Shown here: in pieces, positions 8,495 through 10,945 of the stretch
Numbering within the stretch: the stretch's first letter is position 1
How the letters are laid out: every line of letters begins with the position of its first letter
Source: a virus
Lineage: Duplodnaviria; Heunggongvirae; Uroviricota; Caudoviricetes
Length of the DNA stretch: 14,944 nt
Virus record (IMG/VR): IMGVR_UViG_2703718779_000017
Direction: 5' to 3' (one strand)
Translations under genes and position numbers: made by a program
Notes under the pieces: generated by a model
The model's input: the letters and a program-made list of their open reading frames with translations, nothing else
Databases searched by the model: none
What the model was told of the DNA's origin: nothing

Positions 8495-10945
8495 ATGAGT
8501 AAAGTCTTTATTTGCGCCGCCATTCCGGACGAACAGGCAATAAAAGAAGAGGGCGCAGTTGCTGTAGCCACTGCCATTGAAGCCGGTGATGAACGCCGCG
8601 CCCGTGCCAAATTTACCTGGCAATTCCTGGAGCAATATCCTGCTGCTCAGGACTGCGCTTATAAATTTCTTGTCTGCGAAGATAAACCCGGCATGCCCCG
8701 CCCTGCTATCGACTCCTGGGATACCGAATATATGCAGGAAAACCGCTGGGATGAGGAATCCGCTTCCTTTATTCCGGTCGAACCAGAATCCGATCCTATT
8801 AACGTCAATTTTGACAAGCTGTCCCTTGAAGTACAGAACGCGGTCCTGGTTAAGTTCGGTACATGTGAAAACATCACCGTTGATATGGCGATTGACGCGC
8901 AGGAATTACTGCAAGAAGACGTGGCTACCTTTGACGGGCATATCGTTGAAGCACTGATGAAAACGCCTGAAATTAAAGCTATGTATCCGGAACGCAAACT
9001 GTTCGCTATCGGATGGGTTAAACACAAATGTAAGCCGGGTACCAAATGGCCCGAAATTCAGGCTGAATTACGTAACTGGAAAAAACGGCAGGACGCAGAG
9101 CGCAAAGAGACTGGAAAATACACGTCTGTTGTTGATCTTGCCCGCGCCAAAGCCAACCGACAGCACACTGAAAACCCAGCAGAAAAAATCCCTCCTGTAA
9201 CTGCCGCCATTCATCGCGAATACAAGCAGACATGGAAAACCCTGGACAGGGAGCTGGCCTACTATCTCTGGCCTGGTGATGCGGATGCCGGAAACATTGA
9301 CGGCAGCATCCTTCGCTGGGCTAAAAATGAAGTTATCGCCAGAGATCGCGAAGACTGGAAGCGCATCTCCGCATCAATGCGCAAACAGCCTGATGCGCTT
9401 CGCTACAGCCGCCAGACTATTTTTGGCCTTGTCCGTGAACGTCCGATCGACATTCACAAAGACCCTGTGGCACTGAACAAATACATTACTGAATACCTGA
9501 CTACAAAGGGCGTGTTTGAAGATGAAGGAAGAAATCAGAGCGCAACTGATACTCTCTCGTCGCCAGTACCAGAAACTGATGCAGTGGAAACGGCAATTCC
9601 GGACAACGAAAAAACCGAATGCAAAGTGGAAGTCGAACCATCTGTAGAGCGTGAGGGGCCGTTCTACTTCCTCTTCACCGACAAGGATGGCGAAAAATAC
9701 GGTCGCGCAAACAAACTTTCTGGTCTGGACAAGGCGCTGGCTGCCGGGGCTACTGAAATCACGAAAGAAGAATATCTTGCCCGCAAAAACGGAACATACA
9801 CGGACTTACCGCAAAATGTGGATACCGCTGAAGATTCCGTACAACCGGAGCCGGTAAAAGTTACCGCTGACGAAGTAAACAAAATTATGCAGGCAGCCAA
9901 TATCAGCCAGCCTGACGCCGATAAATTGCTTGCTGCATCACGTGGTGAATTTGTTGAAGGGATTAGCGATCCGAATGATCCGAAATGGGTGAAGGGGATT
10001 GAAACCTGCGATTCTGTGAACCAGAACCAGCAAGAATCGGAACAGAACGACCAGAAAACGGAACAAAACAGCCCAAATGCGCAACAAAACGAGCCAGAAA
10101 CGAAACAGGAGCCGGAAAAAGCCTGCACCGCCTGCGGTCAGACCGGCGGCGGTAGCTGCCCTGATTGTGGTGCGGTGATAAGTGACGCAACATACCAGGA
10201 AATATTCGATGAAGAGAATCAGCCTGAAGTTCAGGAAAATGATCCGGAGGAAATGGAAGGCACTGCGCATCAGCACAAGGAGAACACTGGCGGCAATCAG
10301 CATCATGCCAGCGATAGTGAAACTGGCGAGGCGTCAGATCCCTTAATTAAGGCGAACGGTCATCATAATCTCACATCCACCAGCAGAGCGGGGATTCATC
10401 TGATGATCGACCTTGAAACCATGGGAAAAAATCCTGATGCCCCGATTATCTCAATAGGTGCAATATTTTTCGATCCGCAAACCGGAGAGATGGGGCCAGA
10501 ATTCAGCAAAACTATCGATCTGGAAACTGCTGGCGGAGTCATTGATCGGGACACCATTAAGTGGTGGCTGAAACAGTCACGCGAAGCGCAATCCGCCATT
10601 CTTACCGATGAAATCCCGTTAGATGATGCACTGCTGCAATTACGGGAATTTATCGACGAAAACTCCGGTGAATTTTTTGTTCAGGTCTGGGGTAACGGTG
10701 CAACTTTCGACAACGTGATTTTACGCCGTTCATATGAACGGCAGGGGATCCCCTGCCCGTGGCGTTACACCAATGATCGCGATGTAAGAACGATGGTTGC
10801 TCTGGGACTGGTGATGGATTTCGACGCAAGAACGACTATTCCATTCGAAGGTGAACGCCATAACGCTCTGAACGATGCACGTTACCAGGCGAAATACGTT
10901 TCAGCCATCTGGCAAAAACTGCTCCCGAGTCAGGCTGATTTTTGA
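8495..10945 (+). CDS. Large phage exonuclease: unknown N-terminal region, Cys4 zinc ribbon, C-terminal DnaQ-like DEDDh 3'-5' exonuclease domain
   Basis: Exo I MIDLET, Exo II GNGATFDN and Exo III HNALNDARY motifs in the last ~190 aa. CTACG...CPDCG zinc ribbon. Acidic Q/E-rich linker. GAGG upstream. Sits between the dicB genes and xis, where lambdoid phages carry recombination exonucleases. Confidence 0.85.
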   Translation: MSKVFICAAIPDEQAIKEEGAVAVATAIEAGDERRARAKFTWQFLEQYPAAQDCAYKFLVCEDKPGMPRPAIDSWDTEYMQENRWDEESASFIPVEPESDPINVNFDKLSLEVQNAVLVKFGTCENITVDMAIDAQELLQEDVATFDGHIVEALMKTPEIKAMYPERKLFAIGWVKHKCKPGTKWPEIQAELRNWKKRQDAERKETGKYTSVVDLARAKANRQHTENPAEKIPPVTAAIHREYKQTWKTLDRELAYYLWPGDADAGNIDGSILRWAKNEVIARDREDWKRISASMRKQPDALRYSRQTIFGLVRERPIDIHKDPVALNKYITEYLTTKGVFEDEGRNQSATDTLSSPVPETDAVETAIPDNEKTECKVEVEPSVEREGPFYFLFTDKDGEKYGRANKLSGLDKALAAGATEITKEEYLARKNGTYTDLPQNVDTAEDSVQPEPVKVTADEVNKIMQAANISQPDADKLLAASRGEFVEGISDPNDPKWVKGIETCDSVNQNQQESEQNDQKTEQNSPNAQQNEPETKQEPEKACTACGQTGGGSCPDCGAVISDATYQEIFDEENQPEVQENDPEEMEGTAHQHKENTGGNQHHASDSETGEASDPLIKANGHHNLTSTSRAGIHLMIDLETMGKNPDAPIISIGAIFFDPQTGEMGPEFSKTIDLETAGGVIDRDTIKWWLKQSREAQSAILTDEIPLDDALLQLREFIDENSGEFFVQVWGNGATFDNVILRRSYERQGIPCPWRYTNDRDVRTMVALGLVMDFDARTTIPFEGERHNALNDARYQAKYVSAIWQKLLPSQADF

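Follow-up and report, generated by a model that had tools for sequence, protein, structure and literature searches.

RecE, encoded by the Rac prophage of Escherichia coli K-12 (b1350, 866 aa), is a workhorse of recombineering. Its N-terminal domain is of unknown function, and about two thirds of the protein have no known role except that linear-linear recombination is enhanced by the full-length form (PMC11611040, a 2023 review). Here we describe a gene from the IMG/VR virus record IMGVR_UViG_2703718779_000017, a 14,944-nucleotide stretch of Caudoviricetes DNA that is called the window below. The gene lies at 8495..10945 on the + strand and is a complete open reading frame (ORF) of 816 aa plus stop with an ATG start. 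We read its product as a RecE-family protein of the early-left operon in which the non-catalytic scaffold has been retained, while the PD-(D/E)XK 5'-3' nuclease has been replaced by a DEDDh 3'-5' exonuclease similar to DexA of phage T4. Of what the protein is we are highly confident; the reading as a whole, mechanism included, appears probable to us.

The two proteins are encoded at the same place in the early-left operon: a kil gene (kilR or dicB) and one small gene precede them, and xis-int lies downstream. Their non-catalytic regions are collinear, and in both ETGExxDP(L/V)I marks the point beyond which the catalytic part begins. They differ in the nuclease, which is of the PD-(D/E)XK type (5'-3') in RecE and by prediction of the DEDDh type (3'-5') here, in the recT partner, which RecE has and this gene lacks, and in a small domain (module D below) that this protein has in addition. 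T4 DexA (8KEL/8KEN) belongs to the same Pfam family as the DEDDh domain, and its H186 and D191 correspond to H789 and D794 by the H-x4-D pattern. It is a stand-alone protein of 227 aa with extra loops, whereas in the window a 184-aa domain sits on a 632-aa scaffold and DexA W152 is changed to Thr. E. coli also encodes a DexA homologue with a conserved catalytic core, EcD or HREX (NAR 2025, PMC12153337). EcD is stand-alone with other termini; it lacks D90 and keeps W152, apparently the reverse of the situation here, and an early-left operon location such as that of the window gene is not known for it.

A study of the Rec modules in lambdoid phages (Genome Res 2025, PMC12315714) places DnaQ-like 3'-5' nucleases, the same enzyme class, at the early-left site near int, and distinguishes one class of phages with a nuclease but neither an annealase nor a RecBCD inhibitor; its available part describes neither fusion to a RecE-type scaffold nor cassette exchange. 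The exonuclease of lambdoid phage Lys8385Vzw (QIW91704.1) resembles the DEDDh domain, C-terminal tail included, and is encoded in the early region near int, but it has no scaffold. The 'exonuclease' annotation, the Pfam and PHROG families of the pieces and DnaQ-like nucleases near int in lambdoid phages (PMC12315714) were thus already known. A limited literature search returned no description of a nuclease of opposite polarity on a RecE-family scaffold, of a combinatorial assortment of scaffolds and effectors, or of recT tracking the nuclease cassette.

The scaffold and the nuclease domain

Alignments show aa 1–632 to be collinear with residues 1 to ~591 of RecE. BLASTP against K-12 RecE matched aa 279–618 (E 2e-57). 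Within this region, aa 470–618 are 66% identical to RecE 454–591, with 90% identity between aa 470–505 and RecE 454–484 and 77% between the zinc motif at aa 541–575 and RecE 514–548, while the part of module C within aa 279–345 reaches 29% with RecE 294–351. The NCBIfam RecE model PRK09709 (NF007259) aligned to aa 246–619 only, at 256 bits against an equivalog cutoff of 1269, and the RecE N-terminal domain PF06630 did not score directly on the query in a local Pfam scan.

For the more distant part, profiles were built from 20 YdfE-type and 12 RecE-type N-termini and compared with hhalign. Residues 13–278 matched RecE 10–294 with 99.5% probability (E 1e-22), and still with 96.6% after the last 50 columns, which are strongly similar, had been dropped. 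Module A alone matched RecE 1–110 (95.7%, E 1e-8), and module B gave a weak collinear match to RecE 100–245 (36%, E 4e-4); swapped-module controls stayed at 0.1–0.4%. Judged by these profiles, aa 1–278 and the N-terminal domain of RecE are remotely homologous. In a newer Pfam release, YdfE_N (PF27430) and YdfE_C (PF27432) cover aa 1 to ~278; these are precomputed matches on P0001, a relative 100% identical to aa 1–292, and on many other relatives. Both names go back to the K-12 fragment and say nothing about function. When RecE aa 600–866 was used as a probe, no match was found in the query, and a PF12684-type (PD-(D/E)XK) match was likewise absent from the Pfam scan; the DEDDh domain fills that position. 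The alignments, then, describe not an exonuclease whose N-terminus is an orphan but a RecE-family scaffold whose nuclease domain has been swapped.

The sequence-only reading had regarded the N-terminal ~550 aa as unexplained. This holds in so far as no family of known function covers the region, and domain searches matched it to no well-characterised family; the relatives, however, can be identified in the RecE scaffold. The zinc ribbon and the acidic linker region, also considered to lack an explanation, turned out to have RecE counterparts in the segments of 77% and 90% identity given above.

We modelled aa 1–470 with AlphaFold 2 (AF2) from 36 aligned sequences and obtained a mean predicted local distance difference test score (pLDDT) of 83.6 and a predicted template modelling score of 0.38, so that the domains are confident and their mutual arrangement is undefined. 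The ordered blocks comprise aa 1–100, 101–222, 245–345 and 388–435, and the stretches at 223–235, 347–382 and 440–454 are predicted to be disordered. Foldseek searches of PDB and BFVD with this model returned nothing at E <= 1e-3. The top matches, weak ferredoxin-like or PII-like hits and tiny uncharacterised phage proteins, were not taken as grounds for assigning a fold. A model of aa 440–816 had a mean pLDDT of 42, with an alignment too shallow for the DEDDh part, and offers a weak hint that aa 506–632 are not confidently folded.

All pieces of the scaffold are encoded on the + strand. Module A (aa 1–100, 8495..8794) is predicted to be an alpha/beta domain (pLDDT 79–97) and corresponds to YdfE_N. 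Module B (aa 101–222, 8795..9160), which corresponds to YdfE_C, is all-helical and slightly basic (isoelectric point (pI) 8.7), with pLDDT values >90 up to aa 200 and of ~61–68 over aa 201–220. The helical module C (aa 245–345, 9227..9529) is common with RecE. Module D (aa 388–439, 9656..9811) appears as a small domain of a beta-hairpin and a helix (pLDDT 94–96 for aa 391–430); it is optional across the family, and K-12 RecE is without it. Module E is a short motif (DADKLLAASRGEFVEGISDPNDPKWVKGI; aa 470–505, 9902..10009); it and module C are the two scaffold pieces found most widely across the family. Module E is followed by a linker at aa 506–540 (10010..10114) that is defined by its composition and has low pLDDT in the poor C-terminal model: of residues 505–540, 21/36 are Q, N or E (9 Q, 6 N, 6 E), in line with the Q/E/N-rich linker noted earlier at about this position. 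The CxxC...CxxC motif noted at the same time belongs to a zinc knuckle at aa 541–575 (10115..10219). Its cysteines C544, C547, C555 and C558, out of 12 in the protein, form CxxC-x7-CxxC (CTACGQTGGGSCPDC) and are invariant in 23/23 family proteins matching C-x2-C-x(4-12)-C-x2-C, K-12 RecE included, a set that reaches members only ~23–38% identical overall. The consensus reads CxxCGxxGGxxCPDCGxV(M/I)xDxTY. Last comes an acidic, His-containing linker (aa 576–632, 10220..10390), delimited by the junction alignment and ending in ETGExxDPLI. The scaffold as a whole has a net charge of -43 and a pI of 4.7.

Purifying selection acts on the conserved scaffold pieces no less strongly than on the nuclease domain. 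Nonsynonymous to synonymous rate ratios (dN/dS) were estimated per segment by the Nei-Gojobori method from the window gene and five intact copies of 86–90% nucleotide identity, that is, from six sequences with a simple estimator and for a gene that is a mosaic produced by recombination. The conserved pieces range from 0.06 to 0.21 (module A 0.07, B 0.13, C 0.21, D 0.06, E 0.11; zinc motif 0.09, with a dS of 0.67), the DEDDh domain has 0.14, the Q/N/E-rich linker 0.32, and four disordered linkers 0.42–0.76, among them the acidic linker with 0.63. This pattern matches the predicted order and disorder and therefore argues for a scaffold that is functional and not decaying.

The DEDDh domain itself occupies aa 633–816 (10391..10942, + strand). 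PF16473 (Rv2179c-like) matched aa 635–806 with E 1.1e-65 and 221.1 bits (cutoff 27) over profile positions 2–177 of 177, and was the sole match of the 816-aa protein in the local Pfam-A scan. The predicted catalytic set is complete, with D639/E641 in IDLET, D739 in GATFD and H789/D794 in HNALND, which bears out the earlier assignment of the C-terminal ~190 aa to this class of exonucleases. D639, E641 and D739 align with D7, E9 and D119 of T4 DexA, the only solved structure found by sequence (E 2.4e-8 with the domain alone as query). The six chains that the PDB sequence search listed at E up to 10 do not include Rv2179c, an RNase and the namesake of the Pfam family, and apart from DexA nothing scored better than E 0.6. 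The Lys8385Vzw exonuclease, 190 aa long, is 59% identical to aa 635–814; since this stand-alone homologue exists, the DEDDh domain can work as an autonomous unit. The best-supported activity is that of a 3'-5' exonuclease on DNA, as would be expected from family membership.

An in-frame ATG at 10403–10405 (Met637) lies two codons 5' of the catalytic Asp, with a purine-rich GCGGGGA ~10 nt upstream, and the phage stand-alone homologue begins (MNNLMIDLET) at the equivalent site. It is conceivable that an internal start at Met637 yields a free nuclease domain.

Exchangeable C-terminal domains and Chi sites

With aa 1–632 as query, HMMER retrieved no more than 248 proteins at E <= 1e-3 from 1.84 billion representatives; the named sources are E. 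coli, Shigella, E. albertii and Kluyvera. These relatives have one of two N-terminal types, YdfE-type or RecE-type (PF06630), combined with at least four C-terminal domains, namely DEDDh, PD-(D/E)XK, a domain of ~270 aa that we call class 3 and an unannotated class 4. We sorted the C-termini of the 48 long representatives by markers; the resulting counts are not exhaustive. RecE-type scaffolds carried PD-(D/E)XK in eight and DEDDh in four representatives, and YdfE-type scaffolds carried class 3 in 15, DEDDh in two and PD-(D/E)XK in one. All four pairings of the two scaffold types with the two nuclease types therefore exist.

The junction can be located precisely. RecE-type and DEDDh-type proteins part ways after ETGExxDPLI. 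P0130 corresponds to K-12 RecE from residue 1 to ~590, with 100% identity across most of the initial 360 aa, and continues after ETGE(T/V)ADP(L/V)I into a DEDDh domain, where RecE enters its own nuclease domain. Such a natural chimera (K-12 RecE 1 to ~590 fused to DEDDh) is encoded at L007:6001-8418 (GCA_039763085.1) in a Rac-like prophage, in the order kilR, ydaE, chimera, DUF4224, int, and K-12 Rac recT, ralR and rcbA are absent from that stretch. Comparison of these proteins shows the nuclease domain to be an exchangeable cassette joined directly after ETGExxDPLI.

No annealase gene (recT) was found in any of the 12 DEDDh loci inspected, the window included. K-12 RecE is followed by recT, and P0127, which combines the YdfE scaffold with PD-(D/E)XK, by an overlapping gene of the RecT family (PF03837, E 2e-36). 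In the inspected loci (two PD-(D/E)XK, 12 DEDDh), it is the 5'-3' nuclease cassette, not the scaffold, that the annealase accompanies.

Two Chi sites bracket the cassette. One octamer (GCTGGTGG) lies at 10377..10384 on the - strand, in codons 628–631 and ~9 codons before the catalytic start, and the other at 10966..10973 on the - strand, 21 nt past the stop codon, where it is present in several copies of the gene. The junction Chi is kept in 11/12 DEDDh-type genes despite differing flanking codons and scaffolds, and in the exception it is one base off. With two further octamers at 370–377 and 4629–4636, the window contains four Chi, each of them on the - strand, where shuffled sequences would lead one to expect 0.42. 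Following the map convention in PMC12315714, we read this orientation as active for RecBCD moving towards int; there, lambdoid phages without a RecBCD inhibitor are also described as Chi-rich.

The class 3 domain, the commonest partner of the YdfE-type scaffold, occurs in P0131, P0126, P0129, P0182 and others, for example at L012:5001-7211. It had no Pfam match, and a PDB profile search was also empty. Its invariant motif GEAxKKSLTDAIKKALSxLGF resembles a helix of the Rad52/Sak annealases and makes a Rad52-like domain a lead, for which hhalign comparisons with ul36 Sak and two RecT proteins gave no significant support. Directly after the class 3 gene comes a Sipho_Gp157 gene (L012:7208-7768), and stand-alone homologues of class 3 from phages of Pseudomonas and Vibrio bear the annotation 'DNA repair protein' or 'exonuclease'. 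Class 4 matches phrog_26058 (unknown function) and is found on both scaffold types (P0124, P0137, P0222, P0246, P0250, P0253, P0213); P0124, the one member scanned, had no Pfam match.

Possible roles of the protein

On prophage induction, the protein would be made from the repressor-controlled early-left transcript, like RecE in Rac. Its DEDDh domain would then remove nucleotides at DNA 3' ends, be it on single-stranded tails, flaps or overhangs. The scaffold may do the same job as in RecE, whatever the polarity of the nuclease, since one scaffold that carries nucleases of opposite polarity and other domains suggests a role independent of nuclease chemistry. Most likely it would tether the enzyme to DNA ends, or to a DNA-transaction protein of the host, by means of its small domains, the aa 470–505 motif and the zinc knuckle. 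Recombination would probably run via host RecBCD and RecA, with the enzyme trimming 3' ends of intermediates. In the early region seen, neither an annealase nor a recognisable RecBCD inhibitor is encoded, and the Chi sites all point the same way, which makes such reliance on the host enzymes probable. As an account of how the protein works, we put this forward tentatively, at somewhat less than even confidence.

Several points weigh against this account. Both substrate (DNA or RNA) and polarity are assigned from family membership alone. Because the scaffold has no Foldseek relative in PDB or BFVD, arguments on its role draw solely on conservation and on RecE, and the RecE likeness of aa 470–618 (79% at the nucleotide level) may partly reflect recent recombination. 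The E. coli chromosome has about four Chi per 15 kb, approximately the density of the window, so that the enrichment is weak evidence. The window is part of a prophage, and a RecBCD inhibitor or an annealase may sit elsewhere. Moreover, a 3'-5' exonuclease is expected to destroy the 3' tails used by RecA, so that a role in favour of recombination is not obvious; according to PMC12315714, 3'-5' exonucleases of this sort usually inhibit recombination.

A broader form of the RecE-scaffold reading is possible, although we would not expect it to prove true. The non-catalytic region of the RecE family could be a general delivery platform docking on one specific site, which could be a DNA end structure or a DNA-transaction protein of the host, with effectors swapped by recombination at the fixed, Chi-marked junction. 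The effectors seen would be a 5'-3' nuclease with RecT, a 3'-5' nuclease, possibly a Rad52-like domain and at least one further domain. The natural chimeras are ready-made material to test the role of the scaffold. If the platform exists, the window protein and the chimeras would give a direct route to the function of the RecE N-terminus, which is open in PMC11611040.

Since the nearest solved relative is T4 DexA, the protein could also be a prophage anti-phage nuclease of the HREX/EcD kind, sparing host DNA and degrading the 5-hydroxymethylcytosine (5hmC) DNA of T-even phages, with the scaffold regulating or targeting it. We regard this as rather unlikely. The equivalent of DexA D169 is kept (D775), and the gene is intact in degraded-looking prophages (L018) as well as in 65% of complete E. 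coli genomes. The neighbouring gene dicB has been reported to protect against some phages. Stand-alone EcD is reported to be protective against T4 through digestion of 5hmC DNA (PMC12153337). However, DexA W152, which is needed for 5hmC recognition, corresponds to Thr759 in an ungapped, well-anchored alignment, so that one of two recognition residues is lost. DexA D90 corresponds to Asp711 and not to Ala as in EcD, although a shift by one residue would give Ala712. EcD is, moreover, a different protein that begins with MIDTET and ends with TIPETY, and its primer sequences had no match in 19 fetched loci. The window gene belongs to a repressor-controlled early-left operon next to xis-int, and the K-12 dicBF operon is silent in the lysogen. 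Finally, the same scaffold also serves RecE-type nucleases that have RecT as a partner, and this speaks for recombination.

The acidity of the scaffold (net charge -43, pI 4.7) would fit a protein whose main functional part is the scaffold itself, an acidic, partly disordered decoy or inhibitor that binds a host DNA-end enzyme such as RecBCD, or a protein that interacts with the single-stranded DNA-binding protein, with the C-terminus as a freely exchangeable accessory. This is unlikely in our view, even though the dN/dS of the modules is equal to or below that of the nuclease domain and at least four unrelated C-terminal domains are found attached to the scaffold. In some representatives no C-terminal domain can be recognised, but part of these may be truncated gene calls. 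The loci examined show no gam-like or abc-like gene. Searches for likeness to a known inhibitor or DNA mimic in Pfam, and with Foldseek in PDB and BFVD, were negative. RecET systems are still supplemented with Gam in recombineering, which speaks against a block of RecBCD by RecE. Nuclease-less 'RecE-2' proteins, noted in PMC12315714, would suit a decoy.

The Pfam family is named after a 3'-5' exoribonuclease, and DicF is encoded ~650 nt upstream in the same operon, so we also considered an RNA exonuclease like Rv2179c that would act on transcripts or small RNAs, for example in 3' trimming of the DicF-containing operon RNA. This is very improbable: the DNA exonuclease DexA was found at 2.4e-8 whereas Rv2179c is missing from the six listed chains, and the scaffold is common to DNA recombination enzymes. 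DEDDh genes with the RecE-type scaffold are also found in kilR-type operons, where the gene calls of L007, a locus without an RNA scan, include neither dicF nor dicB.

That the N-terminal region is decaying baggage from a RecE ancestor and the nuclease alone is functional has next to no probability: many database entries are fragments and the N-terminal 60–70% of RecE are dispensable in standard recombineering, but this reading is contradicted by the dN/dS of the scaffold pieces (0.06–0.21 against 0.14 for the nuclease), by the lack of stop codons in all six divergent copies and the near-full-length match in most genomes, and by the invariant cysteines and high AF2 confidence. The review of RecE is consistent with an N-terminus dispensable in recombineering (PMC11611040).

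Spread and neighbourhood of the gene

The PHROG family phrog_2082 ('exonuclease') matches the 816-aa protein end to end. Antisense ORFs within 8495–10945 are unlikely to be genes, since the + frame is under purifying selection and has homologues end to end. In 3505/5426 complete E. coli genomes (65%), a copy covers >=80% of the gene, with a median of 2 places per matching genome and a maximum of 8. Hosts of the near-full-length gene include enterohaemorrhagic E. coli (EHEC), O104:H4 and ST131, and many EHEC and Shiga toxin-producing E. coli chromosomes carry a gene that is 100% identical. With the gene in about two thirds of complete genomes and often in several copies, even a modest role would be widespread, for example in prophage induction, in recombination between co-resident prophages or in phage exclusion.

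In K-12, the Qin prophage holds only a remnant, as the sequence-only reading had proposed. This is ydfE (b1577), an annotated pseudogene interrupted by IS2E, whose product is orthologous and 84% identical to aa 1–256. It shares the dicB-ydfD neighbourhood of the window gene, which is intact. A limited literature search found ydfE in gene lists only.

The window is ordered as follows: a helix-turn-helix (HTH) repressor-like gene, relBE, a ydfA-like gene, a 216-aa ORF, DicF, dicB, a ydfD-like gene, the exonuclease gene, DUF4224 and int. The small RNA DicF at 7797–7848 (+ strand) matches Rfam RF00039 over its full length with 77 bits. Upstream of the exonuclease gene, and in the same operon, are dicB (8025–8213, + strand) and the ydfD-like DUF1482 gene (8210–8401, + strand). 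Downstream, a small DUF4224 protein (11013–11255, + strand) occupies the place of xis in related loci and is followed by a tyrosine integrase (11233–12252, + strand). The succession of kil gene (dicB or kilR), exonuclease and xis and/or int was found in 12/12 DEDDh loci (the window and 11 others), and ydfD or ydaE lies between the kil gene and the exonuclease in all of them except the short contig L009.

Further upstream, the HTH repressor-like gene lies at 5261–5662, and a toxin-antitoxin pair of the relB/relE type (5690–6168, + strand) is located between it and the ydfA/dicB operon. The 216-aa ORF (6597–7247, + strand), a RefSeq hypothetical protein without a Pfam match, takes the place of ydfB and ydfC in K-12 Qin. 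Just past the integrase, a gene for the type III secretion effector EspK (13064–14425, + strand) adjoins remnants of tail-fibre genes, which suggests that a second prophage or a prophage remnant abuts here.

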